Source: a virus (lineage: Duplodnaviria; Caudoviricetes). From it: DNA of 53,969 nucleotides. The notes beneath the pieces were generated by a model that was not told where the DNA came from, searched no databases, and worked only from the letters and a program-made list of their open reading frames with translations. Of the stretch, positions 497 to 53,969 are shown piece by piece (positions within the stretch are counted from its first letter, which is position 1; every line of letters starts with the position of its first letter). The position numbers and the translations under genes were made by a program. The stretch covers positions 1-53,969 of the IMG/VR virus record IMGVR_UViG_3300018080_000224; one strand, given 5' to 3'.

Positions 497-510
497 ACAT
501 TGGAGCATTT

Positions 511-837: not shown

Positions 838-847
838 AGGACATACA

Positions 848-1135: not shown

Positions 1136-1170
1136 ACGGCAGTTAGTTTAAATTTTAACTAGGAGTTACT

Positions 1171-1506: not shown

Positions 1507-1507
1507 T

Positions 1508-1961: not shown

Positions 1962-1962
1962 T

Positions 1963-4486: not shown

Positions 4487-4510
4487 ATAACTACAAAAGG
4501 GAGAATAATA

Positions 4511-4648: not shown

Positions 4649-4656
4649 GTATATTT

Positions 4657-5293: not shown

Positions 5294-5499
5294 TGCATAA
5301 TGATATGGCAATGGCTATCGCTGCTTACGAGGCTGATAATTACGAATTAATCCTCAGAGAAGCTTTAGAAACAAATAATATAGAAATAGTAGAGTTTTGT
5401 AGAATACATATATATCCTAGTTATATAGATGCTGCTCTAGCTGCTGAAATAGATATAGATGTAGAATTAGTGAATATATTTGGAGGACCGTTAGAATGA
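5290..5499 (+). CDS. acidic hypothetical protein
   Basis: GGAGG SD, ATGA overlaps. Confidence 0.6.
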   Translation: MMHNDMAMAIAAYEADNYELILREALETNNIEIVEFCRIHIYPSYIDAALAAEIDIDVELVNIFGGPLE

Positions 5500-5822
5500 A
5501 GAAATCAGAAAAAATATTATTAGCAGTACTAGTAGTACTTTTAGCAGTTACAGTGTGGTTCCATTTCCACCCTAAAAATAGTTTTGAACCTAACGACTGT
5601 ATAGCGACTTTAGGTAAGAATCAAAACATATATACATTTTGGGTAGTAGATTATAATAAAGATATAGATAAGTATTTGATGTGGTTTTATAATAAGGAAA
5701 GAATAGAACTTCCGATAGTAATTAATGCTGATATTATAGATAAAACTTCGGAAAAAGTAGATTGCCCTCTATATCTGCAACAAAGAATAGATAAAAAGGA
5801 GCCGAAAAATGTCCAATGGTGA
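5496..5822 (+). CDS. membrane-anchored protein
   Basis: N-terminal TM ILLAVLVVLLAVTVWF; FEPNDCI...KVDC resembles the 2163 lipoprotein. Confidence 0.65.
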   Translation: MKKSEKILLAVLVVLLAVTVWFHFHPKNSFEPNDCIATLGKNQNIYTFWVVDYNKDIDKYLMWFYNKERIELPIVINADIIDKTSEKVDCPLYLQQRIDKKEPKNVQW

Positions 5823-6243
5823 TAAATACGGGCACTGGATAGCCACCGGTTCTAGTACAACTACTGGAAATAGTATTACTGTTACGTCTACTCCTAACGG
5901 CAATAATTACCAATATATGACCTGCGACGACGACGGCACAATATTAGTTTACACTACTGACGGTACTGGAGGATTAACGACGTGTTCGAACATGCCTAGA
6001 ACAGAAAATGTCTACCAATCTCCAGATTATGAAGGAGAATCTCTAACAGGTCCAGAAGACAAAATATGTACGAAGTGTAAAGAAACTGTTCCAGACCATA
6101 AAGTAGCCGCTTCATACGGCTACAGAAAAATAGCCAAACACGTATGTCATAAATGTTATATAAAACAACTAGATAAACAATTTGGAATAGAAGAATCAGT
6201 AGATATAGAAGATGTACTATATGGCGAAAAAGAAGAAAATTAG
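5809..6243 (+). CDS. zinc-ribbon protein
   Basis: CTKC...CHKC; Thr/Ser-rich N-terminus; ends EDVLYGEKEEN. Confidence 0.65.
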   Translation: MSNGDKYGHWIATGSSTTTGNSITVTSTPNGNNYQYMTCDDDGTILVYTTDGTGGLTTCSNMPRTENVYQSPDYEGESLTGPEDKICTKCKETVPDHKVAASYGYRKIAKHVCHKCYIKQLDKQFGIEESVDIEDVLYGEKEEN

Positions 6244-6526
6244 GTCAACTACAGCTAGTTTTAATAATTCTCTTAATAATAATACTAGTATTGGAACTAC
6301 TGAACCAGGAAATTTAACTATTCATACAGATAGTACAGATATTATTATTTATGGAGAAAAAGAAGGGGTGTGCGATTCTTGTAAAGAAATTAAACAGCTA
6401 TCTTTAGGATTTAAGTTTAGTGCTATAGAAAGAAAAATATGTGGTCGTTGTTTGAATATGAAAATAGATAAGATGTTTAAGACGGGAATGGATGTGGATT
6501 TTGAAGAGGTGTTGTATGATGACTAA
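6221..6526 (+). CDS. zinc-ribbon protein, paralog of upstream gene
   Basis: CDSC...CGRC; ends EEVLYDD. Confidence 0.65.
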   Translation: MAKKKKIRSTTASFNNSLNNNTSIGTTEPGNLTIHTDSTDIIIYGEKEGVCDSCKEIKQLSLGFKFSAIERKICGRCLNMKIDKMFKTGMDVDFEEVLYDD

Positions 6527-6712
6527 AGTTGATTATAGCCCTCATTTGTGCGTGGAGAGTCCTCAGATTGGCTTCTAAGGGCCTTTTAGCTACCAACCTA
6601 TTACCAACTACCTACAAGTCGATCTCAAGCCAATACAGAGCATTTTAGAGGTTTTAGTACTATTTTAGCCTGTAAAAGCTGTAATAGAAATATTATTCGT
6701 TTTTATCACTTT

Positions 6713-6785
6713 GAAAAAGAATGAACCCCACCCTGTCCGAGGAGTTAACAGGGTTGGGGTCCACGTTAGCCTCCGAAGAAGCTAA
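6713..6785 (-). terminator. tandem hairpins ending the late operon
   Basis: minus strand TTAGCTTC-TTCG-GAGGCTAA (cUUCGg loop), then GGACCCC/ACCCTGT...ACAGGGT/GGGGTTC followed by ATTCTTTTT; lies at the convergence of the two transcription directions. Confidence 0.75.
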
Positions 6786-6788
6786 ACC

Positions 6789-7001
6789 TTATTTTTTAAG
6801 AGCTTCCAAAAGTTCATTCATTTTTGCTTTAAGCTCGTTGCAGAGGGCCATAGTAGTAGCTGCATCAATTGCATCAATAGTAGATATAGCTTCAACAGCA
6901 CTAGGTTTAGAGGCTCTCGATTGATATACTTTTGCTGGGCTTGAAGTCTTTAAAGACTCACAAGGTTTGTTCTTACAAACTTTTCCTGTTCCAATTGCCA
7001 T
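6789..7001 (-). CDS. small head-fibre/trimeric coiled-coil-like protein
   Basis: AAGGAG SD before ATG 7001; C-terminus NELKAKMNELLEALKK matches the long fibre's NELKAQVNDLLGKLR. Confidence 0.6.
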   Translation of the reverse strand: MAIGTGKVCKNKPCESLKTSSPAKVYQSRASKPSAVEAISTIDAIDAATTMALCNELKAKMNELLEALKK

Positions 7002-29628: not shown

Positions 29629-31089
29629 TTAAGCTGTTGGGATTGGATATTCAAGAGCAATTTCAATAAACCTAACAGCTTTATTAGGTCTAACTTGAAC
29701 TCTAACCCTTAACAACCCTTGGTCTAACTCATCTTGCGTAGGTTCAACACTAACAACTATAAATTGCTGAGCTTCAGGAAGTCCAGCAGGAAATAGATGT
29801 ATATTGTTCCTAAGAAAGGACTCAATAGCCCTTTGTATTTGTTCCTGAGTTTCTGGTGAGAAATTTTCCCACAGAAAACCCCTAAGTCCTCTTTCCAACG
29901 AACCTTTAATATACTGTAATGATCTCATTACTTGAATCAATTGTTCATCAGCAGTGACTGCGGCTCCACCAGCAGTGTAGCCTCCAAAAATAATATTTCC
30001 AGAACCAGGAAAAGATGTAATTCTATTAATCCACGCTAATCTTAGCGGAGCAGCATCAACTCTTTCCGAAAGAATCAAACTAAGGCCAGTAATTCCAGCA
30101 ATACTAGCATACTGAATGCCTGCAGGAGCGTGAGATGGTCCACCAATACCTATATTGGCGTCAATTCTAGCCATAACTCCAGCTACGTGCCCTATAGGGT
30201 CAATAGCTTTAATTGCCCCAGGACTAGCCAAAGAAGATTGGTCGAGAACAACAACATTATTAAAATACCATGCTGCTACTCTAGATGGATTATTAATAAC
30301 GTCATCTTTATAACTTATAGCAGAAGGAATTGAAATATTAACATCGTCGCCTACACCAAAAAATGTACTCGGGTCTGCTGCTACTGTTACTTCATCAGTA
30401 GTATCATTTACTGCGGAAATAACTGATGTATAACTGCCAGCATCGTTAGTGACAACCATACCTGGCGTAACTGCAGATAAATCTGGAGTACCTGACATAG
30501 TTATAACATACGGCCCTGTTCCAGCAACTGACGCATATTTACCGTCTTCTGTAATAAGTTCATTAGAATCAGCTAATCCTATTTCTTCAGGAATAGTCAA
30601 TAATGAAAAGGACGTAGAAAGTGTCGCCCCAAATTCCGCTCTTACTGTTTCCGTGTAATCAATCAATGCGCTTTGAACTAAATAAGCATCTTCCAAAGGT
30701 AGTCCAGGAACACACACTAGTCCTAAAACATCTTGTGCGTCTAAAGCACGTAGTCCTGAACCGTCTGCAGCACTACCTACGTAATCTGCTGCGGTTGGAG
30801 AACTACCAACATTGACAATTATAGCCACATTACCAGTACCAGCGTTGTCAAAAAATCCTTGCACAGCATAATAAGCGTCATTAGCGACCTCATCAACGTC
30901 ACCAAACGTATCTTCAAAATCAGATAGATTGGTTAGTTGAGTCGGCGTATTAACAGGAGCACCAGATTTAGTGGTACTAATTAAAAACGCTGTAACTGCA
31001 GTAGGAACACCAGCAACTTGTACAGTTCCTAATGGAACATCAAATACTTGTACTCGTTCTGGCCCTATATTTGTATTTAAATTGGCCAT
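29629..31089 (-). CDS. contractile tail sheath protein
   Basis: GVPTAVTAF, GHVAGVMARID, HAPAG, INRITSFPG, VRPNKAVRFI. Confidence 0.93.
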   Translation of the reverse strand: MANLNTNIGPERVQVFDVPLGTVQVAGVPTAVTAFLISTTKSGAPVNTPTQLTNLSDFEDTFGDVDEVANDAYYAVQGFFDNAGTGNVAIIVNVGSSPTAADYVGSAADGSGLRALDAQDVLGLVCVPGLPLEDAYLVQSALIDYTETVRAEFGATLSTSFSLLTIPEEIGLADSNELITEDGKYASVAGTGPYVITMSGTPDLSAVTPGMVVTNDAGSYTSVISAVNDTTDEVTVAADPSTFFGVGDDVNISIPSAISYKDDVINNPSRVAAWYFNNVVVLDQSSLASPGAIKAIDPIGHVAGVMARIDANIGIGGPSHAPAGIQYASIAGITGLSLILSERVDAAPLRLAWINRITSFPGSGNIIFGGYTAGGAAVTADEQLIQVMRSLQYIKGSLERGLRGFLWENFSPETQEQIQRAIESFLRNNIHLFPAGLPEAQQFIVVSVEPTQDELDQGLLRVRVQVRPNKAVRFIEIALEYPIPTA

Positions 31090-32556: not shown

Positions 32557-33678
32557 CTATTTCCTAAATGAAGAAGTAACTTTCTTAGCTACATTCCTTA
32601 AATCATTATACCATTTACTATAATTGCCGACTTTCCACATCACTATTAATCTGTGTACTGCTGGCCAAAATTCAATATCTCTATTAGATTCTAGAGAATA
32701 AGAAGAAGTTAAACTGTATATAACCTCTCCGCTTTTTTTAATTTCTTTATCTACTCTTAAATTATTTATAAGATGAATAATATTAGATTGAGTAATAATT
32801 TCTGGACCGCCAACAGCTTCAGGATCTACTTTTCTATCACGTATCTTTCTAATCTTATCAATCCAACCTTCAAGACTTTTTCTCAAACTACCAGTTTTAG
32901 CTGATTCTAACATGATAATAGCATTATCATACTGTCCATTTTTTACGTCAGTTATTACTGAGTTCAGATTTATAAAATGAGGAAATACTTCTTCTTCAAG
33001 AACAGCTTGCCTTAACATCCATATGGGCATTTGCCCTTTTTCCTTAGCTGTATTAAACCTATCTTCGTCAGTTACTGCTTTTTTGCCTTTTTGTCCTATA
33101 TGTGCGCAGTGAGCTTTAACATATTTTCTTAAGTCTATTCCTGGATTAAGATAATATGTGAGCCTGTTACTACCATCTATTACAGCAAAAATAGAACTAT
33201 TTATAGAAGTTATAACCTTATTTTTATGCTCTTCAAATGATGAGTCATCCTCAATAGGCTGCTGCATTCTGATTAGCATTGTCTGCTCACCATCTTTATT
33301 CACTTTTTGAAGAGTACTTACAGCTATTATTTCAGCATCTACATCAGCTATTGGAGTACTACCGTCAGTAAGTACATCCGACTCAAATCCTGACAAGTAT
33401 TTAAATACAGCACTCTCTGAAGCTAATATATCGCTCCAATTTTCATTATCACCAATATTTATTGGATTCCCAGGAACTGCTGTTTTTTGACTAAGAATTT
33501 CTTCGTTTACGGTAATTCTGAGTCTGTTTCTTAATTCATTTACATCCTTTTGTATAGGTTCGTCAAGTCCTTTTTGTATTACTTTTTCTTCTACTTCTTT
33601 AGTAAGGCGTCTTATTGCAGCTTCTATATCGTTAGTTCCAGGTTTTAATTTTACTGTTATGTTTAAATTCCTAGCCAT
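32557..33678 (-). CDS. probable neck/head-tail joining protein
   Basis: position only. Confidence 0.45.
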   Translation of the reverse strand: MARNLNITVKLKPGTNDIEAAIRRLTKEVEEKVIQKGLDEPIQKDVNELRNRLRITVNEEILSQKTAVPGNPINIGDNENWSDILASESAVFKYLSGFESDVLTDGSTPIADVDAEIIAVSTLQKVNKDGEQTMLIRMQQPIEDDSSFEEHKNKVITSINSSIFAVIDGSNRLTYYLNPGIDLRKYVKAHCAHIGQKGKKAVTDEDRFNTAKEKGQMPIWMLRQAVLEEEVFPHFINLNSVITDVKNGQYDNAIIMLESAKTGSLRKSLEGWIDKIRKIRDRKVDPEAVGGPEIITQSNIIHLINNLRVDKEIKKSGEVIYSLTSSYSLESNRDIEFWPAVHRLIVMWKVGNYSKWYNDLRNVAKKVTSSFRK

Positions 33679-34571
33679 TAATCTCTGCCGTAATTTCTAT
33701 GATGCTGTCTATGACAGATGTTACAAAGAGATACTCCATTGTCTATATCATAAAAATAATTATTATTTAGGTCATTTTCAGTTAAATCAGAAATAAATTT
33801 ATTATTAGTTGTACAATAACTATGAATCAAATGCTTTAGAGTAGTAATATGATGAACCTCTAAATCTGTAGTAGAATTACATTTTGTACAACATCTATTA
33901 TCTCGTTCTACAACTGCTGTTCTCCAATCCCAGTAGGATTTTAAATCTCTAACTCTCTCATATATAGATTTAATACCACCTTTCCAGGATGGATTATTTT
34001 TACCGAATTGATTATAACAACGATGGTGTTTATAAATACTATACTTATTCTTTGAAATATTTTTTAAAGTTTTTAAAATGGGAGTTTTTGAACAACTAAA
34101 TTTATCTGCTATTTGATTACACGACATTCCAGATTTATATAGTTGAATTACTTTTTGTTCTTGTTTTTCAGTTAAAAACTTAATTTGGTATTTACTAAGG
34201 ACAGTTTTTGCGTGATGTTGTAATTGTTCTTTAAGTTTAGGGTTATTTTGTACTATTAATTTTTTATCTACTTTTAAACCTAATTTATTAGCTATTTTTT
34301 GAATAGTACAATATTTTTTATTCAACTCTTTAGCACAATACTTACAACCTTTAGTTTCGTAGTTATCTTTTAAAAATTGTATTTCTTCATCATTTAATAT
34401 TTTTATGGTATCTTTATTCCAAGAGCCGTTGGAGCGACCCTTAAAACCCAGCTTCCAAGCTTTCATATAAATAGATTTTTCAGAGGTGTTTAGCATATTA
34501 GCTAATTCTTTAGCAGACATGTTTCCATAATTTTTTGTTAATATTTCAATATTAGAATCTGTCCAAATCAT
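33678..34571 (-). CDS. free-standing HNH homing endonuclease with HTH repeats
   Basis: NPSWKGG, CTKC, LEVHH, NGVSLCNICHRQHH; N-terminal WT..I..L...Y repeats; very AT-rich. Confidence 0.88.
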   Translation of the reverse strand: MIWTDSNIEILTKNYGNMSAKELANMLNTSEKSIYMKAWKLGFKGRSNGSWNKDTIKILNDEEIQFLKDNYETKGCKYCAKELNKKYCTIQKIANKLGLKVDKKLIVQNNPKLKEQLQHHAKTVLSKYQIKFLTEKQEQKVIQLYKSGMSCNQIADKFSCSKTPILKTLKNISKNKYSIYKHHRCYNQFGKNNPSWKGGIKSIYERVRDLKSYWDWRTAVVERDNRCCTKCNSTTDLEVHHITTLKHLIHSYCTTNNKFISDLTENDLNNNYFYDIDNGVSLCNICHRQHHRNYGRD

Positions 34572-34598
34572 TACTTCTCCTCTAAGTAGTTGATATTA

Positions 34599-35354
34599 TT
34601 AACCTCTTCCGATTCCGATAGATTGAAGCTGAGACTCCCTTTTCTCTTGACTTAAAACCCTACTCCATTCACCCTTCCAAAAAGTTATATTTTGATCACT
34701 AACACTACTACCATCTTCACCTCTAGAAGCTAGTAATATACTCCATATAGTATAATATACTACAAATAGTCTATTGTTCTCCGTATTACCTCTAGATTTA
34801 CTTAAATTAAGTTCTTCTCTAAGTTTAGTAGTAGCATTATTAATATGAGTTTGTATCATATTATCCCTAGCTTGTTGATCATTTCTTATAGCTTTTGGTA
34901 GAAATTGGTCAATATTAAATTTAGTAACTCTAACATCAGAAACAGTAGCATAACCGTAATCTCTAATACCTATCTGACCTGCTCCACTTTTAATTGTAAA
35001 ATATTCATCTCCAAAATACTGTGTAATTCCACCAAGTATTCCAGAATATGTAATTATATATTCATCAAGCGGAGTCTGACTACCAGGTATATCCCACTCA
35101 AATTGGTATTCATATTGCTGGCCAGGTACTAGAGTGCCAGTTAATGTAGCTAATACTACTGGAAATGGCTGCACATCCATCAAAAAACTAGGTTCTAAGA
35201 TTTGAGCAGTAGGCTCTGTTCCAGTATCTACTACTGTAGGTCTACCGTCATCCATAAAAATAATCTTAAATGTAGCTGTAGTTCCCCTTAAAAACGTATA
35301 ACCGTCTTTAGTTTCGATTCTAGTTCCTGCTGTTGGACTAATTACTCCTGCCAT
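34599..35354 (-). CDS. head-tail adaptor-like protein with N-terminal Ig-like domain
   Basis: YATVSDVR motif typical of connector proteins; position. Confidence 0.55.
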   Translation of the reverse strand: MAGVISPTAGTRIETKDGYTFLRGTTATFKIIFMDDGRPTVVDTGTEPTAQILEPSFLMDVQPFPVVLATLTGTLVPGQQYEYQFEWDIPGSQTPLDEYIITYSGILGGITQYFGDEYFTIKSGAGQIGIRDYGYATVSDVRVTKFNIDQFLPKAIRNDQQARDNMIQTHINNATTKLREELNLSKSRGNTENNRLFVVYYTIWSILLASRGEDGSSVSDQNITFWKGEWSRVLSQEKRESQLQSIGIGRG

Positions 35355-35358
35355 AAAC

Positions 35359-35676
35359 TTATCCTATAACATAATTTATAAGTACACTTGCTATCGCACT
35401 AAATACCATACCAAGAACACCTGCAACGACACCAACTTTAATCAAAATGCCGTTAGTTTTATTTTCTACCTTACAGAGTCTTCCCCTAAGGTCCCCCACC
35501 ATTTCTTTCGTGCTAGATTCTACTTTATCAATATCATCTTTAACGTCTACAAATTCTATTCTACTAGGTAGATACTTCAGATCATCCTTAATCTCTCCTA
35601 AAAGATCTATAATAGACTCTACTTTTGTTTCGACCCTAACTAGTCTCTCTGAGGTTGGGATGTTGTCTGGTGGCAT
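35359..35676 (-). CDS. coiled-coil protein with C-terminal TM (holin/XhlA-like)
   Basis: ERLVRVETKV coiled coil then VGVVAGVLGMVFSAIASVLI. Confidence 0.6.
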   Translation of the reverse strand: MPPDNIPTSERLVRVETKVESIIDLLGEIKDDLKYLPSRIEFVDVKDDIDKVESSTKEMVGDLRGRLCKVENKTNGILIKVGVVAGVLGMVFSAIASVLINYVIG

Positions 35677-35824
35677 TTGATTGTTCCTCTTCTATTTCCT
35701 TACATAATTCTTCTCGAATTATTTTCTGTTCGCTACAGATGTCCTCGGCATGTTTACAAGCTTGGTCTAGCTTTTCTTCTAGACTACTCTTTTGCTTTGT
35801 CTTCTTCAGGCTCTTGTGGTTCAT
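35636..35824 (-). CDS. hypothetical protein
   Basis: GAGG SD; overlaps both neighbours by ~40 nt. Confidence 0.45.
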   Translation of the reverse strand: MNHKSLKKTKQKSSLEEKLDQACKHAEDICSEQKIIREELCKEIEEEQSNATRQHPNLRETS

Positions 35825-40187: not shown

Positions 40188-40843
40188 TATGTTAAGTACC
40201 CTTCTAATGAAACGAAACTATTATGATTACCAGGCCCACATGAAGGAGTAATAAACCTATCTACTAAAGCTTCAACTGTCAAAGTTTCACTACTTAATAG
40301 AGGTCTATGTTCATCAAACTTGAATACCACATTTCTTTCAAATGGCCCAGATCTCAAAACTTTCTTTATTACACCATTTATTTTTAATGAAAACGTAGCT
40401 GGAGTACTTGCGGTAGCATCAACTCTCACAATTCTAGTACCATTATTTGTAGAAACGTGAGTAAATACTACTACAGGAGCCATAGAAGGTATTACTGTGT
40501 ATTGTTCATCAAATATAGGGTCAGGATGACCACTTATGGCGATATTATCACCATCAGCAGCATCAACTTCTACATTTGCGTCAATAGACCCGTCAGGATT
40601 TATAACTAAAACATTACCTGATATAGGGTCTCCAATATGTACCCCGTCGTCGTAAAAGTCTAGATCTACTTCTACTTGTATATTTTGAGCAGTAATATTA
40701 GCATCTACAGCTAATCTTTGAATACCAGCACTATCAACTACGCAATCAATCGGCAAACCAGTCTTATGGCAAACTAAAACGTTACCTTGAGTAAATCCTC
40801 TCGGAGTACATTGCGAACCTGCTGATTTGTTCTTTGTGCTCAT
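40187..40843 (-). CDS. probable head decoration protein
   Basis: downstream of capsid; INPDGSI motif; GAGG SD. Confidence 0.55.
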   Translation of the reverse strand: MSTKNKSAGSQCTPRGFTQGNVLVCHKTGLPIDCVVDSAGIQRLAVDANITAQNIQVEVDLDFYDDGVHIGDPISGNVLVINPDGSIDANVEVDAADGDNIAISGHPDPIFDEQYTVIPSMAPVVVFTHVSTNNGTRIVRVDATASTPATFSLKINGVIKKVLRSGPFERNVVFKFDEHRPLLSSETLTVEALVDRFITPSCGPGNHNSFVSLEGYLT

Positions 40844-40864
40844 TAACGCTACCTCGTCCCAAAA

Positions 40865-41443
40865 TTATTTAGATAGCCTTTTAATTATGCTTTCTCTTAA
40901 TTTTTGTTTTTCTTTTTTTGGGATAAACTTTGGAACTTCTACTCCAAAGTCTACTAATTTTGGGTCTTTTAATATATGGAGTTTGCAATATTTACTAGGA
41001 GAAACGTCTAATGCTAAATTCTTGCAAAGTGCTCCAGTAGATTTCCTAAACTGGCACAGCTCTCCCTCAACATGTTGCTCTTCTTGAATTTTTTGTTCTT
41101 CTTGTTCTTTTTGAATTTTATATTCTTCTTGTTCTTCGAGAAATTCATTTAATTGTGTAGTATATTTTACATATACATCTTTTCCAAAAATTGTTTCTAT
41201 ATCTCTAGTTTTTGTAACAAATTTTAAATCTTTCAAAAATAGTAAAGGTTCTGGAGTTCTAAGACTAAGAGCAGAAGTCTTTTTTAACATGTGATGAGCT
41301 TTACTATCTTTAATTACTACTGCATACCCATCTCTAAACTTTATACCACACACATTCCCATTTACGTTCCTTAATTTATGCTGCACTACAACATATTCTA
41401 CAATTTTAGTATCATTTCTAGTTCTTGTTGTCCAATAAGACAT
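40865..41443 (-). CDS. hypothetical protein with C3H zinc finger
   Basis: CQF..STG.LC.N.A......YCKLH; GGGAG SD favours ATG 41443. Confidence 0.6.
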   Translation of the reverse strand: MSYWTTRTRNDTKIVEYVVVQHKLRNVNGNVCGIKFRDGYAVVIKDSKAHHMLKKTSALSLRTPEPLLFLKDLKFVTKTRDIETIFGKDVYVKYTTQLNEFLEEQEEYKIQKEQEEQKIQEEQHVEGELCQFRKSTGALCKNLALDVSPSKYCKLHILKDPKLVDFGVEVPKFIPKKEKQKLRESIIKRLSK

Positions 41444-41554: not shown

Positions 41555-42883
41555 TTAGCAACTTAGCGGCAGTACATTCTGCATACGAGCTAAAGCTAGA
41601 CGATTATACAGATCAAAACCGCAATACCATTTCATGCGATATTGATAAGCATTTTCATCTTCTCTAGGTCCAACATACTCTAATTTAAGACCGGCGTTGT
41701 TGGCGGAAGTGAATCCAACGATTCCCTTATATTCGCCCCAGCAACCAGCATAAATTGAGGATGCGTCGTCTCTTTCAGCAAGAATAGCATCTTGTCCGTC
41801 AGTGAAAAGAGCGTCATTAGGAGCAACCCTAGCGACCATTTCATTCTGTTCTGGATCAAAAAATGAACCAGTAGAATCGACGGTAAGAGTATCTGTGCCA
41901 GCACCAGCAGAAACTTCCCAACGATACATAACACCATCTGATCCACGCATAGAGGCGTGAGATGCTCCACCAGTAACTGCTTCAGCAACAGTCAATGCTA
42001 GAGTTGTAGCGTTAGAAGAACCTTTGTCCAATAATTTAGTATCAGTATTACAAAAATCAGCTTTAGAAACAAAATCATTCCTGTAGACAGGAATATCTTG
42101 ATAATAAAGTTGAGGTTTGGCATTGCCAAGACCCTGCTGCTGAATTTGCACTGAATCTGTTCCACCACCTGTATTCCTAAGAAGAACTCTCAGAGTACGA
42201 ATCTCACGAGCATTCATCATAAGAAAATCAGACGAAGCTGCCGTAATACGGTCAATCATGTCATCGAGATCTTCAAGAGTGAAAACCCGACCAGAACGAC
42301 CATTACGAGCACTTGCAGGATCATCTTCTACAAGACTAAGACTCTGCGTAGATGCACCAGCATTAAAAAATGGATGGTTAACATCGTCTGCGTTGCCCTG
42401 CTCAGCGTCCAGAATGGAGGCCATTCCGTTAAACCTATCAGAAATACCGATAGGACCGTTGTTTGCTTGCGCTAGAGGACCGCTGCTTCTACGAGAATTA
42501 ACAATCGCATTCATATAAATACGAGCAATAACTTTCGCTTTGGCGGAAATCTGAACTTGAAGTTGGTCATTTGATTCGCTCAATTGATCTTCAACTTGAC
42601 CGTCCAGAATAATATCAGCAATAATTGCTGAAAGGTTAACGTTGACCGGAACAAATTTTGCCCCAGCCTGATATTTTGACAGATTAAGATTCTGTCCTGG
42701 TGCAGCAAAAGCTGCTTTAGCTAGCTGTGATTCACGAGTAAACGTGTAAGCCAAACCTTCAAAAACCACGAATGGAAGGTGTTTAAACCATTCATCCACG
42801 GATACGATGTCAGCGATGATACCTTCAACGAGAAGGTTATTTGATAATACAGCCGCATCAGTTAATGAAATTACCTGAGCCAT
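41555..42883 (-). CDS. major capsid protein (HK97 fold)
   Basis: LPF...EG.AY...RE, FNGM, LDDMID, IPVYRNDF, SSIYA, RMKWYCG..L...ALAR; follows scaffold, followed by hairpin. Confidence 0.9.
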   Translation of the reverse strand: MAQVISLTDAAVLSNNLLVEGIIADIVSVDEWFKHLPFVVFEGLAYTFTRESQLAKAAFAAPGQNLNLSKYQAGAKFVPVNVNLSAIIADIILDGQVEDQLSESNDQLQVQISAKAKVIARIYMNAIVNSRRSSGPLAQANNGPIGISDRFNGMASILDAEQGNADDVNHPFFNAGASTQSLSLVEDDPASARNGRSGRVFTLEDLDDMIDRITAASSDFLMMNAREIRTLRVLLRNTGGGTDSVQIQQQGLGNAKPQLYYQDIPVYRNDFVSKADFCNTDTKLLDKGSSNATTLALTVAEAVTGGASHASMRGSDGVMYRWEVSAGAGTDTLTVDSTGSFFDPEQNEMVARVAPNDALFTDGQDAILAERDDASSIYAGCWGEYKGIVGFTSANNAGLKLEYVGPREDENAYQYRMKWYCGFDLYNRLALARMQNVLPLSC

Positions 42884-44231: not shown

Positions 44232-45998
44232 TTATTTTGCTCTAGGGTCACCATTTTTCTTTTTTTGAACAGAACTTTGTTCTGAATGTTTCGCTTTATT
44301 GTCTACAGATACTTTTCCTTGTGATCCTGGACTACTCTTTGGAGCCATAGTAATAGTTTCATCAGTAGTTGATTTATTAGTAAGTCTTCCAGAAGCGACA
44401 CTACTACCCTCTGCGGCAGAACTTATTCCGCCTTCTACGAGAATTTTAGCAACTTCTACTTCTCTTTTTGCATCTTCTTTTGCTTGTTCTAATTTGTCTT
44501 TTCTTTTTTGTTTAATTTTTTTGTTTATGTCAGTTTCACTGAGATGTGGATAAATTTTTCTATATGATTCCCTATCGCCATAATCTAAAAGTTTACTTTC
44601 AATTACTAGTGTCTCTAACTTTGTTTTTGGATCAACTGGGAAAGACGGTTCTTTGTACGTTACTTCTAATTTGCATCCTTTACTAAACTGTCTTTCTCCG
44701 CCTTTGCTGTGATGAGTATTCCACAATTTTTTAATAACCTGGAATAGTTGTTGTTCCCTTTCTCTGAAGAGTTTAGCTCTTCTGATATTATCTTCCATTA
44801 CTCCGATTTTTTCCATTAAAAGAGCAAAACCAGAACTAGGAAGAGTATCTTTATATTTAGGCCTAAGTCCGTGATTAATTCTTACCATATCAGTAACACC
44901 TTCAATGGTTTTTATTAATCCAGTAATATCAGCCGAAGGGTGAGCAAACTTAAAATCTCCCTTTTCACCAACAGCTATAGCGGTATCTGGGCCAATGCTT
45001 ACTCCCAGAGCATTCGCATCAGCATTCCCATCTCTATTTAGACCCATTCCAGCATCAAATGTCCTAAAATTTCCTCCTGCACCAAAACCGCTTACTCCAC
45101 TTAGTCCGCCAAAAGTAGACTGAGCAGAACCGCCTTTAAGTACATTAGCATCATCAACAGGCCTGCCTTGTCTTAATGACGTAGGCCTTTCAATTCCACT
45201 AACTACTGGGACACCGAATGATTGGAATTTCGCAATATGATTAAGATCCGTGATTCTCATATTTAATGCGTGATTAGCATAAATTAGAGGCTCATTAATT
45301 GGTAAAAAATAATAATGAGCAGGATCTTGGTTAAAAAACGGAATCGCAGGTACTAACCCATATGGATTGTCCCCCTCATAAGCATTGTTTTCTTCGTCAA
45401 CAATTTTATGAGAATTAGGACTCCAGTAAATAGTATTTACTCCTCTTAATTGTCCTGGAGTAGCTACTATATTCTGTCTCTGCTCAATCCCAGCAGCGCC
45501 GTAGTTAGATGGATTAGGAATTTTTCCAGAAAGACTACCACCAGTATAACTAGTACCACCGAATCCAGTAAATTTTGTACCAAATCCTATTAGTAGTTCA
45601 GTTATATAGTATGGAGAAGCCCCGTGTTTGATGTCATAGGTTCCACCATGAAGCATATCAAGTTGAACCATTCCGCCTTCAGTCTGGTTAACTAATTCTC
45701 CACTATCTGGATTAACGAAACTCACTTTAACTAAAACTGTACCAAGCAGTTTAGTCCACCTATCAAGCTTATCCATAAACATGAGATATCTACAATCTTT
45801 TTGTATTTCTTCCCATAGTTCTTGGTCTGCTTTGGATTGTTTTCCGCCGTCATCCACAACCGAATATATGGGATCTTCCCTATATAATATGGATGTCTCG
45901 TCAATGATCTCTTTAGTTAGATTCATTGGGAGGATTTGTTGTTTTTCGGGATTACGAAATTGGCGGACCAAGTCCAACCAAACAAATTCATCTTGACG
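44232..45998 (-). CDS. portal protein, exon 2
   Basis: NLTKEIID, NPYGLVP, SGFAL motifs of SPP1-like portals; starts after the intron's terminal G. Confidence 0.88.
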   Translation of the reverse strand, partial: RQDEFVWLDLVRQFRNPEKQQILPMNLTKEIIDETSILYREDPIYSVVDDGGKQSKADQELWEEIQKDCRYLMFMDKLDRWTKLLGTVLVKVSFVNPDSGELVNQTEGGMVQLDMLHGGTYDIKHGASPYYITELLIGFGTKFTGFGGTSYTGGSLSGKIPNPSNYGAAGIEQRQNIVATPGQLRGVNTIYWSPNSHKIVDEENNAYEGDNPYGLVPAIPFFNQDPAHYYFLPINEPLIYANHALNMRITDLNHIAKFQSFGVPVVSGIERPTSLRQGRPVDDANVLKGGSAQSTFGGLSGVSGFGAGGNFRTFDAGMGLNRDGNADANALGVSIGPDTAIAVGEKGDFKFAHPSADITGLIKTIEGVTDMVRINHGLRPKYKDTLPSSGFALLMEKIGVMEDNIRRAKLFREREQQLFQVIKKLWNTHHSKGGERQFSKGCKLEVTYKEPSFPVDPKTKLETLVIESKLLDYGDRESYRKIYPHLSETDINKKIKQKRKDKLEQAKEDAKREVEVAKILVEGGISSAAEGSSVASGRLTNKSTTDETITMAPKSSPGSQGKVSVDNKAKHSEQSSVQKKKNGDPRAK

Positions 45999-46031
45999 CA
46001 AGTATTTAATATTCTTGGACTATATCTTCAG

Positions 46032-46739
46032 TTAAAATATTAACTGCTTCGCTTTCTCGGTAAGAATATCCATATTATATTTTTCATATAACTCTGGATA
46101 TCTACTATCATATTGTAAATCAATTTTATATAACATATCTGGAATAATATACTTTTTTATAATTTCTCTAAATTTACGAAAATTAGTTGAATTAAATTCT
46201 ATATAATATTTAATTCCACCTGTTTTTATAGAACTATAAATTTTGATATGTATATTCCATTTATCTTTAAAATATTTTTTAATTAGTAAATGTTCTTCAT
46301 ATGTAAATGACATTGACCAAATTCTAGCTCTTCTAGATTTAATTTTAGTCTTATCAAATTTATCTTTTTGTAAACACAGTTGTCCATCATCCATATACCA
46401 AAGTGCTAATCCTAGAGGTGTTAATTTTTTTAGTATTTTTTTAGTAACGATTTTTGTTTTGTTTTTGTAGAATATTTTATGTAATTTTGTAAAATATTTT
46501 AAAGAATTAGTATTTAATTGATAATCGCCCCTTAAAGATTGTTTTAAATTAACTTTAACGGGATGTATTTGTTTTAATATTTTTTCTTTAAACTCTATCA
46601 GTTGTTTTTGTTCTTTACAATGAGAACATTTAAAATATCCGTTGTGTGTTAGTTTTTTTCTAACTATACTAGAATCTCCTAGTAAAGTACCAAAAACAAA
46701 TCCATCTAATTGAGAACTTGATAGAGAATTTATATTCAC
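46032..46739 (-). CDS. intron-encoded LAGLIDADG homing endonuclease (I-SceI-like, two motifs)
   Basis: FGTLLGDSS and LALWYMDDG motifs; lies between R and S elements. Confidence 0.93.
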   Translation of the reverse strand: MNINSLSSSQLDGFVFGTLLGDSSIVRKKLTHNGYFKCSHCKEQKQLIEFKEKILKQIHPVKVNLKQSLRGDYQLNTNSLKYFTKLHKIFYKNKTKIVTKKILKKLTPLGLALWYMDDGQLCLQKDKFDKTKIKSRRARIWSMSFTYEEHLLIKKYFKDKWNIHIKIYSSIKTGGIKYYIEFNSTNFRKFREIIKKYIIPDMLYKIDLQYDSRYPELYEKYNMDILTEKAKQLIF

Positions 46740-48094: not shown

Positions 48095-50908
48095 TTAAAA
48101 CCCTTTAAATGTTGCAAAAAATTGATTTCTGTCGTGAAATATGTAAACCATTAAATATCTAATAGCATCAATTAAACCTTCATATCCCTCTGGTGTTTCT
48201 TCGTAATCTTCTTTAAGTCCGCCATTTTTTGTTCTTTTGAATCTAGCAGAACTTAAGGCATAGATAGTATTAACGCAATTCTTAGAAACAAAAAACTTAG
48301 GTAAAGTTTCTTGTTCGCCATCAGAGTTTAATTTCGGTTTACCTCTTTCATCAAATTGTGGAAACTGCATCCACAATCTAATCATATTTCCACCTGTTTC
48401 TCTGTCTTGTTTAAGACCCACAGGACTTCTATTTAAAACTTCCTTAAAATCGTCCCAAGCAGCTCTTCCATTTAACTGCCTCTGTTTTCCTGAAATATCA
48501 GCCACAATTTCTGTAAATTTTATGTGATGCCTATATTTCATTTCCTGGCATTGATCTTGCCAAATTTTAAGAGCTGTCCTACTTAATTCTCCCTCTTTAT
48601 CTGCTATCTGCTGAGCTTGCATATATGATGTTGTAGTTTGTGTGAATCTCTCATCAAAAATGATAATATCTTCATTTGAGTTTATTTGTGCAAATATTGT
48701 AGATGCTGGTCTAGCAAAGTTATGATCACATGCTGCGTACACTGGCCCGTTGTCTGGGTGCCAAATATAATCTATTACATTTGGATATAAATTAAGATCT
48801 GTTTTCTTTTCTATAAATCCAGGAAAACAAGAATCAGCAATTGATTCGAAATCAGCTAAATATTCTTGCTTAAACTTTTGAGCTTTACCAGATAATACTG
48901 CTCTTCTATAAGCAGAATCAATTTCTTCCTTTGATTTGTCTGGACTAGAAGCTAATAGTGGATTATCGTAACTAGTTTTTTGAAAAGAACTCCATTCCCT
49001 ACTATCGTTAGTAGTTCCTGTTTCTTCATTAAAAATTATTTGTTCGCTGCCACTTCTTTGAGATTTACCAAGTTGTCCAAATAAAAATAATTTATAAAAA
49101 GTGTTTTTACCACGAGGAGTACTAATAAAAATTGCACTACCTTCTTTATCCATCAGTGTTGGCTGAAGCATTTGAGTCCATATGTCGTCTAACTTAGGCT
49201 CAAGAGCAGCTTCATCAACAATTACTAAATCATTTGCTTCTCCAGCTAACGAATCTGGGTTCTCCATAGATTTGGCTTCTAAAACTGAACCCCAAGGTGT
49301 TTCTAAATAATAATCACCTTTTTGGTTCCTAGCTCTTCCGCCTCCAGGTTTTCCTGGTTTAATTATCCTTAGCTGAGTTACTAATATACTATAAAGTTCT
49401 CTAAATACCTTTTCGCATAGTCCGTAGTCAGGAGCAACTATCCATACTCGCCTATTCATTTGCATCAATACGGCTAGAGCTGCCAACACAACTAAAAAAG
49501 TATTATGTTCTAAACAATCACTTATGTAATTATGATATATAGGAACAGATAACCCAGCAGTTGCTTTTTCTCCAACAAACTCAATAGAAACTATTTCATC
49601 CCAATATCCAGGAATATTTATAATTTTTCGTTCTTCTTTAAATTGCTCAGGAAATTTATCACAATAAAATAAAAGTTTATTCCGACCAGCCGCTCGATCA
49701 GGCCTTACTCTACCTACTAAAGTTTTCTCTTGTTCTCGATAAGAAATTAAACTCTTTAGTTTATTTGCAAACTCATAACAAAATTCTTTAGGTATAGTAT
49801 TAAGTTGAGAATTAAAACTACCTTTAGTATGAGTTAAAACTTCATCAAATTTATCTTCTTTACCTAGTATACCTACTAATTCTACAAATTTTCTTATTTC
49901 TAAATAATTATGTATTTTTAACTGGTAAGCTACATTACCTCTCCAACGTCCTAATTTTAGGATTTTAGTTTCAAAATTACTGACAATTCCCAATCTAGCT
50001 AGTAATCTTTTAACTCCTTGAGTCAATTTAAAAGAAACAGAGCAATATCCTATTTCGTTATTAGAAACCCAACCGTCTGTAGCAAACAGTCTATTTAAAA
50101 ATAGTGCTATTTGGTCATTTGGCGCAGTATAAATATAATTAGGTATAAATTTTGTATGAGAACTTGTACCGGCTAGTCCAGTATCTTCAATAACCTGATA
50201 TATAGAATTATTTATATGTAGATGATAATCTTTTGCTTTATTATTTTCTTGCTGAGTTATTCTATAAGTTCCATCAAGTAATTCTATAAATCTTTTTTCT
50301 ATAATTGGATTAGCTACGGAAAATGAGTAATACTTTTGAGTTAGACACCCATCGCCTAATAAAAGTCCTAAAAGTTCTATATATTTTGAGTTTTTCCTGT
50401 CTTTGCCCCTATGTGGGAGTTGATTAGGAACCAGAACTCTCATTCCAGATTTTAACTCTTCTATGGATTTCCACCCAAAAGAAGTAAATAGTGGATGATT
50501 AGCAGTTCGTAATAATTCCAATCCATACTTAGTTTTTACCTTATATACAGGTTTTATGTTGTTATCTACACAAGTTGCTTTAGTTCTAATTAATTTAAAA
50601 TTTTCATCAACTGAATTAACATAAAATTCTTTTCCTATTAGATTCCCATAAGTTTCTACTGACCCATCAGCTAAAATTAACTCCTCATCTATACATCCGC
50701 ATTTACCAAAACGTCGACCACAAGCTAAAACCTTGAATCTAGCATCATCATTGAGTATATCTATGTGAGCATCATGAAGAGGTTGTATTGTTTTACCTTG
50801 AGTTGTTCTTATATTTTTTTCATTAAGATAATTAGCTAATTCTCGTATATTTAGGTCGTGTATTCTTAGTGGTTTACCTTCTGTATTATTCGTCTTCATC
50901 TTTTCCAT
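48095..50908 (-). CDS. terL: terminase large subunit containing an intein
   Basis: Walker A ACGRRFGK/T, Walker B VIVDEAA, ISTPRG, QEYLADF, nuclease DAIRY. Confidence 0.95.
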   Translation of the reverse strand: MEKMKTNNTEGKPLRIHDLNIRELANYLNEKNIRTTQGKTIQPLHDAHIDILNDDARFKVLACGRRFGKCGCIDEELILADGSVETYGNLIGKEFYVNSVDENFKLIRTKATCVDNNIKPVYKVKTKYGLELLRTANHPLFTSFGWKSIEELKSGMRVLVPNQLPHRGKDRKNSKYIELLGLLLGDGCLTQKYYSFSVANPIIEKRFIELLDGTYRITQQENNKAKDYHLHINNSIYQVIEDTGLAGTSSHTKFIPNYIYTAPNDQIALFLNRLFATDGWVSNNEIGYCSVSFKLTQGVKRLLARLGIVSNFETKILKLGRWRGNVAYQLKIHNYLEIRKFVELVGILGKEDKFDEVLTHTKGSFNSQLNTIPKEFCYEFANKLKSLISYREQEKTLVGRVRPDRAAGRNKLLFYCDKFPEQFKEERKIINIPGYWDEIVSIEFVGEKATAGLSVPIYHNYISDCLEHNTFLVVLAALAVLMQMNRRVWIVAPDYGLCEKVFRELYSILVTQLRIIKPGKPGGGRARNQKGDYYLETPWGSVLEAKSMENPDSLAGEANDLVIVDEAALEPKLDDIWTQMLQPTLMDKEGSAIFISTPRGKNTFYKLFLFGQLGKSQRSGSEQIIFNEETGTTNDSREWSSFQKTSYDNPLLASSPDKSKEEIDSAYRRAVLSGKAQKFKQEYLADFESIADSCFPGFIEKKTDLNLYPNVIDYIWHPDNGPVYAACDHNFARPASTIFAQINSNEDIIIFDERFTQTTTSYMQAQQIADKEGELSRTALKIWQDQCQEMKYRHHIKFTEIVADISGKQRQLNGRAAWDDFKEVLNRSPVGLKQDRETGGNMIRLWMQFPQFDERGKPKLNSDGEQETLPKFFVSKNCVNTIYALSSARFKRTKNGGLKEDYEETPEGYEGLIDAIRYLMVYIFHDRNQFFATFKGF
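49502..50701 (-). mobile_element. 400-aa intein with LAGLIDADG endonuclease
   Basis: starts with Cys after GRRFGK; block B TANHP; LGLLLGDG and LFATDG motifs; ends HN followed by Thr. Confidence 0.93.
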
Positions 50909-51437
50909 GTAAAACCTTGTTTATTTCTCTAAACTTCTCAAGGGTTCCGTCTGTGAAATCGACTTTATCAGTATAATCTCCACTAAGAGTGAGCCAAATC
51001 TTTGCAGCAGAAGTATCTCTTTCTACTCCTCTTTTATGCAAAGCATTAATCATTTCCATTCTATTCTCATGAGTAAAAAGTCCAGTTTCCTGAATCTTTT
51101 TCCAAATGGCTTCTCCCCATCCATCTTTTTTCATCCATGCTCTAATAGAAGCTACTTTAGGTATGCTTTCTAGCAGTAATTTTTGTAGTTCTTCTTCTAA
51201 TTTGTATCTTTTCTTTATTTCAAGCTCTAATTCTCTTATTAGCTGCGGTACTCTGGGTAGGACTTCTGGATTAGCTATGGTGTGCGACGCTATGATTTCT
51301 TGTAGAGTTTCTTGGACTAAATCCCATTCTGCGTTCCCACTAAGCTGTTTTACTGCTCTACGTGCTTCTAATTTAATAACAGCATTCTTAGAAGCTTCTT
51401 TATTAACTTTGGTTTTAGTGGAATCTTTATCAGACAT
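50886..51437 (-). CDS. probable terminase small subunit
   Basis: helical protein immediately upstream of and overlapping terL; AAKIWLTLSG motif. Confidence 0.6.
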   Translation of the reverse strand: MSDKDSTKTKVNKEASKNAVIKLEARRAVKQLSGNAEWDLVQETLQEIIASHTIANPEVLPRVPQLIRELELEIKKRYKLEEELQKLLLESIPKVASIRAWMKKDGWGEAIWKKIQETGLFTHENRMEMINALHKRGVERDTSAAKIWLTLSGDYTDKVDFTDGTLEKFREINKVLHGKDEDE

Positions 51438-52306: not shown

Positions 52307-52350
52307 TTGACAAAAAACCCTCATAATATATTATGTATATCCTAAGTCAA
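52307..52350. promoter_or_regulatory. symmetric overlapping promoter pair / operator
   Basis: TTGACA-16-TATTAT on + and TTGACT-16-TATTAT on -, centred on palindrome CATAATATATTATG. Confidence 0.55.
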
Positions 52351-52397: not shown

Positions 52398-52679
52398 TTA
52401 TTCTTTGTAGAGAATTTCCCACCATTCATCTGTACTAATTTCTGAAAATTTTGAAAGAAAATTATAACTAAGATCTATACGAATTCCTGTTTCTAAATCA
52501 CTTAATTGATCTATAGGTTTTCCGTTCTTTACTTTTCGGTGGAATAAAAGCACTACTTCATATCCGTCAGGGTCTAAATTCTTTCTTCTAATCAATACTT
52601 TACACACTTTTACTATAGCTTCCTCGCTTGGAGTCCTAATATGCACTAAATCTCCAACTATATAAGGTCTATTAGCCAT
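52398..52679 (-). CDS. small SH3/KOW-like protein with WxxILY tail
   Basis: YIVGDLV...WWEILYKE. Confidence 0.7.
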   Translation of the reverse strand: MANRPYIVGDLVHIRTPSEEAIVKVCKVLIRRKNLDPDGYEVVLLFHRKVKNGKPIDQLSDLETGIRIDLSYNFLSKFSEISTDEWWEILYKE

Positions 52680-52926
52680 ATAAAATGTCCCAAAACTCTG
52701 TTTTTGTTAGCTTTTTTACACTATGGTCGTTGAAATAACCTTTGGAATACAGCATGTCAGTAGAAATATTAACATGTTCATAGTCTAATTCTCTGGGACA
52801 ATACACAATTTTAGTATAAAAACTATCATATTTATTAGTACTATAGTTAAGTAGCTTTAATATTACATGAAATTTATGTTTTTCTGACACAACCTCAACA
52901 TAATCGCCTGGTTTAAATTTAGTCAT
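52672..52926 (-). CDS. small SH3/KOW-like protein with WxxILY tail
   Basis: FKPGDYV...FWDILYG. Confidence 0.7.
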   Translation of the reverse strand: MTKFKPGDYVEVVSEKHKFHVILKLLNYSTNKYDSFYTKIVYCPRELDYEHVNISTDMLYSKGYFNDHSVKKLTKTEFWDILYG

Positions 52927-53206
52927 ACAGTAATTTTGTCCAATCCCTTTTGTCTTTACTTAACACATCAATTTCACTGTGGTTACTTAAATTATCAAAA
53001 CTTAGGAATGCTAACCTATCATCTGCAATATCATTTTCTATAAAAAATCCTTTATTTACGAGTATTTTAGCCTTAAAATAAGGATTAATTGCCCATTCTG
53101 GCTCAAAACTATAAGTTTCTGTGCCTACTACTTCAACAATTGCCCACGAGGACAAAGTCAGCGTCGAATCTAAACGAATGTAATTGCCGTCTCTAAACCA
53201 ATTCAT
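52919..53206 (-). CDS. small protein with WxxLLY tail, probably leaderless
   Basis: FRDGNYI...WTKLLYD; ATG 53206 sits at the predicted +1. Confidence 0.65.
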   Translation of the reverse strand: MNWFRDGNYIRLDSTLTLSSWAIVEVVGTETYSFEPEWAINPYFKAKILVNKGFFIENDIADDRLAFLSFDNLSNHSEIDVLSKDKRDWTKLLYD

Positions 53207-53212
53207 ACTATA

Positions 53213-53241
53213 AGTATACACTATTTATATTTAAATGTCAA
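53213..53241 (-). promoter_or_regulatory. sigma70-type promoter
   Basis: TTGACA-17 nt-TATACT. Confidence 0.75.
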
Positions 53242-53340
53242 GCTTTAAAAAAAATCGCCCAGGATAGCTTCTGAACTAACTGCGAAGCCCTAGGCCTGCT
53301 TCGCAAGCCCAGAGGCCGGCACAGGGCCAATAAATGGAAA

Positions 53341-53559
53341 TTAAGGGGTATTGTATTCTCGTCCGTAAAGTATTTGTGCCCATGTGGAAACCTCCTTCAA
53401 CTTCCCAATGGCCTTTGAGCACATCCCTATATCACTTTTACTTTTAATAGTAATAAATTCATAAGGAAAAGCACCTCTTTTATTAAATTTTCTATATATC
53501 ATAACTATTCCCAATTCGTCCTTATAAACCCTACCTATCTTTAACTCTTTAATTTCCAT
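53341..53559 (-). CDS. small protein with WxxILYG motif
   Basis: LKIGRVY...WAQILYGREYNTP. Confidence 0.65.
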   Translation of the reverse strand: MEIKELKIGRVYKDELGIVMIYRKFNKRGAFPYEFITIKSKSDIGMCSKAIGKLKEVSTWAQILYGREYNTP

Positions 53560-53785
53560 AAAGAATTTCAGCCCACTCCTTATCTTTTCCTACATAGATT
53601 CCATAACTATCTATAAAATGACAATCAATATCTGCAGTTCTACCAACCATAGAACTTAGACAATACGTTTCCTCTGTTGAAAACCAAGCATTTTCAGTAG
53701 TAATACCACTACCTATAATCCTAACTAAATAATTACTAGAATCCCAACTAATATAAATAATATCACCACTCTTAAACTTAGCCAT
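53549..53785 (-). CDS. small SH3/KOW-like protein with WxxILYG tail
   Basis: GGAGG SD before ATG 53785; FKSGDII...WAEILYGN. Confidence 0.7.
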   Translation of the reverse strand: MAKFKSGDIIYISWDSSNYLVRIIGSGITTENAWFSTEETYCLSSMVGRTADIDCHFIDSYGIYVGKDKEWAEILYGN

Positions 53786-53936
53786 GCAGTAGCCTCCACA
53801 TCTCGGCTTCCTCACTTTTAGGGTCTAACTGTATAATTTGCTCACACCTCAAAGCACCAGAATCATAACTATTACAACTAGTTATTATTACTATTACTAC
53901 ATCTTTGTGTATTTCGATTATTATTGTCTTATCCAA
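53778..53936 (-). CDS. 52-aa protein ending WRLLHG
   Basis: TTG start after AAGGA; MDKTIIIEIHKDVV...EEAEMWRLLHG; not in ORF track. Confidence 0.55.
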   Translation of the reverse strand: MDKTIIIEIHKDVVIVIITSCNSYDSGALRCEQIIQLDPKSEEAEMWRLLHG

Positions 53937-53967
53937 AGTATAGTATCCTTGCTAGTTCTTGGTCTTC
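53929..53967 (-). CDS. C-terminal fragment of a gene ending LARILYFG (truncated by window edge)
   Basis: EDQELARILYFG-stop, same tail motif as downstream genes. Confidence 0.45.
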   Translation of the reverse strand, partial: EDQELARILYFG

Positions 53968-53969
53968 TA

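Follow-up and report, generated by a model that had tools for sequence, protein, structure and literature searches.

We examined a 53,969-base stretch of caudoviral DNA (34.5% G+C), which is the whole of IMG/VR virus record IMGVR_UViG_3300018080_000224 and is called the window below. At its far end, an array of small minus-strand genes encodes mostly dissimilar proteins that share one C-terminal ending, the tag, with the seven-residue consensus phi-x-[K/E]-phi-L-[Y/F]-G (phi, hydrophobic). We propose, with a probability of about 0.55, that the tagged proteins are a diverged, clade-specific multigene family of small barrel proteins in which the conserved C-terminal helix is part of the fold. 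Many members, probably most, would be small KOW/SH3-like (chromo-barrel-like) beta-barrels, and in the best AlphaFold2 model the tag is predicted to form the last helix of a chromo-barrel-like domain. At somewhat short of even odds, the conserved helix end may also be a common contact for one shared partner. Judged by sequence, the seven-residue ending ties together about 100 otherwise unrecognisable open reading frames (ORFs) across the clade.

The array holds seven tagged genes (A to G, Table 1), runs off the window end and continues past it. The seven gene ends are exactly as an initial annotation, made from the sequence and its ORFs, had given them, and so are the four ATG codons embedded in the tags, in CAT-GGC (B/C), TAT-GGA (C/D), TAT-GAC (E/F) and TAT-GGC (F/G), and the use of TAC for Tyr in the run-end genes D and G. 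The start it placed inside TTT-GGA at the A/B junction is correctly positioned, but the codon is TTG rather than ATG and the start is less certain. Its motif W-x-x-[IL]-L-Y needs loosening: the Trp of genes F and B lies one residue nearer, so that the common core is [IL]-L-[YH], with no fixed W-x-x spacing. Trp at position -5 (counting the aromatic residue as 0) is a habit of the window, seen also in one subfamily of relatives (..VWELLYG, ..TWKVLYG). Gene F has a look-alike, P0078, of the same 84 amino acids (aa), ending ..EYWEILYG.

Table 1. Tagged genes and other features of the window; an asterisk marks a stop codon
Feature	Position	Strand	Remarks
Gene A, 3' end only	53929-53969	-	Runs off contig; ends ..ELARILYFG*; read in frame
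Gene B, 52 aa	53778-53936	-	Ends ..EMWRLLHG* (His variant); TTG start inside TTT-GGA of A
Gene C, 78 aa	53549-53785	-	Starts MAKFKSGD..; ends ..WAEILYGN*; ATG inside CAT-GGC of B
Gene D, 72 aa	53341-53559	-	Last of run; Tyr is TAC; ends ..TWAQILYGREYNTP, tag ..WAQILYGREYNTP
Terminator-like element between D and E	53247-53330	-	GC-rich hairpins, then T-run; stem 53276-53257; longer upstream palindrome by eye
Sigma-70-like promoter before E	53213-53241	-	TTGACA-17-TATACT (11/12); consensus match only
Gene E, 95 aa from ATG	52919-53206	-	Ends ..DWTKLLYD*
Gene F, 84 aa	52672-52926	-	Starts MTKFKPGD..; ends ..EFWDILYG*; ATG inside TAT-GAC of E
Gene G, 93 aa	52398-52679	-	Last of run; ends ..EWWEILYKE*; Tyr is TAC; ATG inside TAT-GGC of F
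Sigma-70-like promoter before H	52323-52350	-	TTGACT-16-TATTAT (10/12); consensus match only
Gene H, 96 aa	52003-52293	-	No tag; inner border of array; tblastn matches in 26 loci, E to 1e-21
Putative small terminase, 183 aa	50886-51437	-	Ends ..FREINKVLHGKDEDE (His variant); TerL ATG inside its CAT-GGA
Large terminase	48095-50908		
Major head protein	41555-42883		
Tail sheath	29629-31089		
Tagged gene, zinc-ribbon-type body	6212-6526	+	Ends ..FEEVLYDD*; second in-frame ATG (6221) inside upstream TAT-GGC
Tagged gene, zinc-ribbon-type body (CxxC..CxxC)	5809-6243	+	Ends ..DVLYGEKEEN; ..IEDVLYGEKEEN*

The tag recurs far too often to be a chance ending. Translating the window in six frames gave 7,779 stop-to-stop segments, and W-x-x-[IL]-L-Y turns up five times among them; four of these lie at most seven residues from a stop, all in the array. 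We then counted a looser core, [ILVMA][LI][YF] within the last nine residues, against residue shuffles (300 for the window), using crude ORF sets (ATG starts only, at least 40 aa, overlaps removed greedily) from the window and from three whole related records, G001, G002 and G004, the last being the most distant. The core was found in 9 of 73 window ORFs (shuffles 2.2 +/- 1.5, maximum 7), 18 of 186 in G001 (6.3 +/- 2.3, maximum 13) and 28 of 176 in G002 (5.4 +/- 2.2, maximum 13); G004, with 2 of 220 (6.6 +/- 2.5, maximum 15), has no excess. Two of the nine window ORFs are doubtful (5029-5298 and 46032-46394), and genes A, B and D are missed by this core. A chance origin of the tag is rejected by the six-frame counts and the shuffle test together. 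Its enrichment in the window, G001 and G002 exceeds that of the residue shuffles and, with many tags lacking an ATG, what overlap with a following gene would predict.

We tallied the motif over 120 distinct tagged ORFs of 40-157 aa (median 90), in which positions -2 to 0 were set by the search pattern and the others were free. The commonest residues are T (30), G (17) and S (13) at -7, A (26), L (24) and T (18) at -5, K (42) and E (28) at -3, L (107) or I (13) at -1, Y (101) or F (19) at 0, and G (58), K (15), E (13) and D (8) at +1. Past the aromatic residue there follow 0 (4 ORFs), 1 (35), 2 (27), 3 (22), 4 (7), 5 (16) or 6 (9) residues; longer tails are found in gene D (7) and in one G002 ORF (14).

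Part of the family can be joined by its bodies. With the tag cut off and the ORFs clustered, hhalign was run on cluster profiles for 480 of the 1,485 pairs; 6, 18 and 25 pairs reached at least 50%, 20% and 10% probability, against 0, 1 and 1 of 480 when one side was reversed. The linked clusters, window genes F and C among them, have an N-terminal phi-x-x-G-D-x-phi start, which is present in 44 of the 120 tagged ORFs. The bodies had initially been taken to share nothing obvious beyond such a start; that holds for most pairs, which have no detectable similarity, but not for this profile-linked subset, which points to a KOW/SH3-like barrel. Pfam assigned KOW to 2 of 37 aligned members (best E 6.1e-7), uL24m-like to 2 and SH3_1 to 2, while window genes B-G compared with Pfam KOW (PF00467) and its relatives gave no matches at E <=1 apart from chance-level rows; by sequence, KOW membership would extend to a few relatives and not to the window genes. 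A body-only profile gave an SH3-like match for gene C and matched none of the 102 untagged ORFs of G001.

The 37-member alignment, used as a profile against 1.84 billion representatives, returned 198 matches at E <=1e-3. Many are long proteins in which the N-terminal barrel motif is repeated 4-9 times in tandem. Among 18 of the small full-length matches eight were rows of the query, and nine of the ten new ones, P0078 included, end in the tag. The long proteins found with the family profile include P0013, P0014, P0017 and P0019 (300-2,200 aa), with 4-9 SH3-like units in tandem; several of those in P0017 precede ..A-T-[P/D]-x-E-[V/I].., a sequence like the one before the tag helix. With the family alignment as query, a word-indexed search of 5.8 billion proteins returned 11 matches, all unnamed or 'hypothetical protein'; with gene C as query it returned gene C alone.

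Structure prediction gives the clearest picture for a 79-aa subfamily. Its AlphaFold2 model, from 8 rows, has a predicted local distance difference test score (pLDDT) of 83.7 and a predicted template-modelling score of 0.70, with strands at 11-14, 17-26, 35-41 and 54-57 and a helix at 66-76 that follows directly after the last strand, without a linker, and carries the tag. The neighbours of this model include the MRG15 chromo domain (2f5k, Z 7.3, 71 of 79 residues aligned), MRG701 and Tudor domains; Tudor, chromo and KOW domains are matched at Z 6-7.3. The best Foldseek match is HspQ (5ycq; E 8.1e-3, TM 0.54/0.55, 22% identity over 78 columns), and VIA aligns HspQ at Z 7.0 with a root-mean-square deviation of 3.1 over 62 residues. 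By these model comparisons, the neighbours of the subfamily are barrel-plus-helix domains aligned over the whole length; the MRG15 domain is a barrel plus a long helix. Like the MRG15, Tudor and KOW domains, the phage proteins may be a small barrel (four strands in the model) with a helix after it; unlike them they stand alone, occur as 20-40 paralogues per genome and have a fixed ..L-[Y/F]-G end. Gene F was modelled from the 37-row alignment, giving strands at 9-14, 19-25 and 38-42 and a helix at 75-83 (pLDDT 66.6); fold searches with this model found no neighbour (best Z 3.5, best BFVD E 0.03).

In the family that we propose, a C-terminal alpha-helix would close the barrel, with T, S, P or D as its N-cap and phi-x-[K/E]-phi-L-[Y/F]-G as its end; to go by the model, the Leu and the aromatic residue may form a hydrophobic staple of the helix and the Gly its C-cap. 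The tag helix would be the slowest-evolving part, kept by selection on the peptide, and would therefore be the sole recognisable remnant between paralogues. The genes would lie in tightly packed operons behind sigma-70-like promoters, with the Tyr codon and the following G-initial codon (TAT-G) co-opted as the start of the next gene at about half of the junctions, so that neighbours are likely translated as coupled units, if the geometry is a guide. The variable barrels presumably differ in what they bind during infection. As to the promoters, the sites before E and H are among the best of the region, where one plus-strand site also scores 11/12; promoter-like sites overall number 11 against 10.2 in shuffles, that is, they are not commoner. 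Such sites are all that would speak for the early expression proposed in the initial annotation.

Several observations weigh against this proposal. No similarity was detectable for 455 of the 480 body pairs, and the body-only profile, although trained partly on the same sequences, matched just 3 of 8 tagged small ORFs in the window, 4 of 18 in G001 and 4 of 27 in G002. In G004 the same profile found three SH3-like small ORFs without the tag; the barrel is therefore not dependent on it. The tag occurs on zinc-ribbon bodies and its His variant on the putative small terminase, neither of which is explained by a purely structural barrel helix. The gene F model is weak, its helix following a stretch (55-68) with pLDDT <50, and the structural matches of the subfamily are all at Z <8 or E >1e-3, the range of common small-barrel arrangements.

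These points bear on an alternative that we hold to be unlikely, though worth serious attention: that the helix end is a portable short linear motif by which unrelated bodies all dock to a single hub of the phage or its host, such as an AAA+ protease, RNA polymerase, a sliding clamp or terminase, so as to be delivered, removed at a set time or made to compete. This would suit a tag that three or more body types carry (SH3-like, zinc-ribbon and putative small terminase), that is more conserved than those bodies, and that is present in 10-16% of the ORFs of G001 and G002 with no excess in G004, whose SH3-like ORFs lack it. It would also suit the low-confidence stretch before the helix in the gene F model, and a small-gene family (c09; L011:1226-1492, L012:63-350) in which the motif occurs twice, near the N-terminus as ..DGPIAKSLFSD.. 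and at the C-terminus as ..SPAAKTLFSSDVE. In our best model, however, the helix is continuous with the barrel and has no linker, and a subset of the bodies is homologous, so that shared descent explains much of the sharing. The initial annotation, which favoured a docking, sorting or degradation tag, had named a core structural helix as the contrary case; the 79-aa subfamily model supports such a helix by placing it after the last strand, but the other kinds of body that carry the tag do not fit it.

There are precedents for small proteins with a C-terminal binding sequence. Two small proteins, HspQ and LarA, target the protease Lon by way of C-terminal sequences (PMC10665427, PMC6719616), LarA having a C-terminal helix followed by a hydrophobic, transferable five-residue degron (PMC10665427); the T4 motif LDFLF[G/D], taken up below, is another. 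HspQ and LarA would be the closest analogues in function. HspQ is also the best Foldseek match of the subfamily model, though a weak one. At E <=0.1 the 37 members matched 22 Pfam families, none of them YccV-like, and HspQ is not among the 9 rows at E <=10 in a profile search of PDB sequences. LarA and SulA signals, furthermore, need the last residue of the protein, but the Tyr here has 0-6 residues after it, and 14 in one ORF; this variable tail makes a signal needing a free C-terminus unlikely and counts against the portable tag. A degron of the ssrA, SulA or LarA type, read from the free C-terminus, is rejected on these tail lengths. A single hub, if there is one, could be a host AAA+ protease such as Lon (as for HspQ and LarA), RNA polymerase or the phage terminase.

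A further alternative is that the motif is kept at the DNA level, as a by-product of gene junctions whose codons carry the next start and its ribosome-binding region. Such start/stop overlaps are common in phage operons. In 56 of the 120 tags an ORF of at least 40 aa starts at base 2 of the TAT Tyr codon, the purine-rich K/E codon at -3 lies 8-10 nucleotides 5' of that ATG, and the codon after Tyr is G-initial in 72 of 101 cases. The downstream ATG lies just 5' of the stop, with overlaps of 8, 11, 14, 17 or 20 nucleotides. The remaining tags comprise five with TATG and only a short ORF, 17 with TAT and no following G, 23 with TAC and 19 with Phe, so that 59 of 120 have no ATG and still end in phi-L-[Y/F]. 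TAC makes up 23 of the 40 ATG-less Tyr tags against 29.8% of Tyr codons genome-wide (p = 2.5e-4), which looks like loss of an unwanted ATG with the residue kept. Run-end genes change to TAC or Phe rather than losing the residue, and even the Phe tags, in which no ATG is possible, have a G-initial codon next in 11 of 19 cases. Coupled phage genes in general differ from these, where the ATG is fixed at base 2 of a conserved Tyr codon (56/120) and the Tyr becomes TAC or Phe where no gene follows.

The peptide itself is also better conserved than its surroundings. In all seven orthologous groups (7/7) the tag identity (0.41-0.78) exceeds the body identity (0.30-0.43), and the aromatic column is Y or F and nothing else; in one eight-member group, 27-42% identical overall, L-Y-G is invariant. 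To judge by these sequences, selection is on the peptide and not on the overlap alone, because the 59 ATG-less tags keep the motif and TAC is enriched among them. The initial annotation had argued the same from two run-end genes, and the larger set bears it out: the motif persists in genes that no downstream gene overlaps. Five kinds of Leu codon (CTT, CTG, TTA, CTC, CTA) occur among the seven window tags, and none of the nine DNA repeat families of the region lies on the tags, from which we conclude that the likeness is in the protein. A junction by-product as sole cause is largely refuted by the ATG-less tags, and we consider it very improbable. The lack of a DNA-level repeat at the tags likewise rejects a DNA repeat or recombination cassette, and leaves the suggestion that the tag eases cassette shuffling unsupported at the DNA level (0/9 repeat families).

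We give very little credence to a T4-type sliding-clamp-binding motif (C-terminal ..L-D-F-L-F-G). The C-terminus of T4 gp43 (..EKASLDFLFG) and a loop of T4 ligase (..LDFLFD) are amphipathic helices that insert into the clamp gp45 (PMC6212786, PMC2988020). The likeness to the tag is plain, since each is, or for the tag would be, a short amphipathic helix at or near the C-terminus, of the form phi-charged-phi-L-aromatic-G/D, on otherwise unrelated proteins of one phage. The relatives have no detected clamp, however: PF09116 and PF00712 matched none of five related records (three at least 90% complete, the window being about half a genome), while PF02916, also 0/5, had a control that matched nowhere either. 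The G001 polymerase is of family A and untagged, and G001 ORFs above 180 aa all lack the motif near their ends. At position -3, K is as common as E, where the T4 motif is acidic, and there are dozens of carriers, not a handful.

Equally slim is the chance that the tags imitate the helix at the C-terminus of the small terminase and so bind the large terminase. We identify ORF 50886-51437 as the putative small terminase from its position upstream of TerL and its overlap with that gene. Its C-terminal [FY]REINxILH, which fits the tag with His for Tyr, is kept in 20 of 20 distinct relatives, the tag-less G004 included (..FNKILH); His is found as well in gene B and in one G002 ORF, and the arrays adjoin the terminase genes. 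Yet a motif kept in G004, which has no tagged small genes, speaks against such mimicry, as does the lack of an obvious rationale for dozens of terminase binders. The identity of the 183-aa protein, moreover, rests on position and a language-model lead: it had zero matches in Pfam and PHROGs, and its atlas features were at 0.92 to viral clusters that partly carry HTH_Tnp_1_2 (a language-model lead only). When one tagged protein was co-folded with the large terminase of a relative, the score was 0.00 and the mark 0.32, which speaks neither for nor against binding. A nascent-peptide effect on termination or reinitiation was considered and set aside as unsupported.

The phages concerned are uncultured (sediment) myoviruses of roughly 100-115 kb, known from metagenomes alone. 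Related records span 97-117 kb and three are at least 90% complete, so that the window is about half a genome. Relatives in IMG/VR were found at 31 loci with the capsid as query (65-86% identity) and at 14 with the terminase (67-74%); the capsid of G004 (L058-L063; 117 kb, with terminal repeats) is 65% identical. Conserved in the relative loci are gene H, a zinc-finger ORF, the putative small terminase and the genes downstream. Genes B-G had zero tblastn matches in these loci, on related contigs with capsids 65-78% identical; gene C has a 30% identical ORF in G001 (40642-40878). In the relative loci the region upstream of H is packed, on both strands, with small genes ending ..[K/E]-[I/V/L/A]-L-[Y/F]-[G/D/E/K].

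Other searches returned little. Pfam and PHROGs gave nothing above chance for genes B-G, H and a neighbouring ORF, blastn of the array against isolate phages gave zero matches, and tblastn with the 589-aa ORF 44232-46001 gave none. No relatives came from scanning viral contigs for the putative small terminase, gene C and P0078, and a metagenome scan with P0078 yielded one unrelated contig (48% GC) without tags. The stretch was present in one DNA run, and no RNA run is listed for it. A literature search, at the level of its listings, found no description of this motif. The tagged zinc-ribbon ORF 5809-6243 had a weak DUF7685 match (E 0.0022), below the cut-off.

Of all parts of phage genomes, the small early genes are the least well understood, and searching with their sequences usually returns nothing; here the tag points to the probable fold of such ORFs, an SH3-like barrel with a helix. 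The gene junctions, too, follow a regular design, with the next start codon held in a conserved Tyr codon that is re-coded when the start is unneeded. If the tag is only a structural cap, we would be looking at a multigene family decayed to one recognisable helix. If it is truly a docking peptide, it would mark a hub of phage-host interaction, and comparing the tag with a tag mutant would offer a handle for finding that hub. If the tag is portable, the arrays would act as a quickly evolving stock of adaptors or decoys whose target-binding barrels can be exchanged, and a junction with the start codon inside the tag would allow new cassettes to join and still be co-translated.

Some side observations concern other genes of the window and its relatives. 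The large terminase has 937 aa in the window versus 531-542 aa in relatives; its PHROG match covers only residues 470-927, and in the terminases of the relatives the alignment begins near residue 80. The insertion of about 400 aa is intein-like. A 962-aa ribonucleotide reductase (RNR)-like ORF of G001 has Intein_splicing and LAGLIDADG domains. ORF 33678-34571 of the window (297 aa, ending ..CNICHRQHH..) has by eye the look of an HNH-type homing endonuclease; G001 lacks a counterpart between the conserved structural genes that flank it. A plus-strand auxiliary block at 35-7000 includes a Holliday-resolvase-like ORF (35-496), a deoxynucleoside monophosphate (dNMP) kinase (2459-3127), a subtilase-like S8 peptidase (3526-4155, E 1.9e-14) and an ORF with a Phage_ABA_S domain (4657-5055). 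Finally, adjacent genes for a DUF2201 protein (metallopeptidase-like plus VWA-like) and an AAA_5 (MoxR-like) ATPase lie at 33231-35820 of G001 (L047), and the pair is also found in G004.

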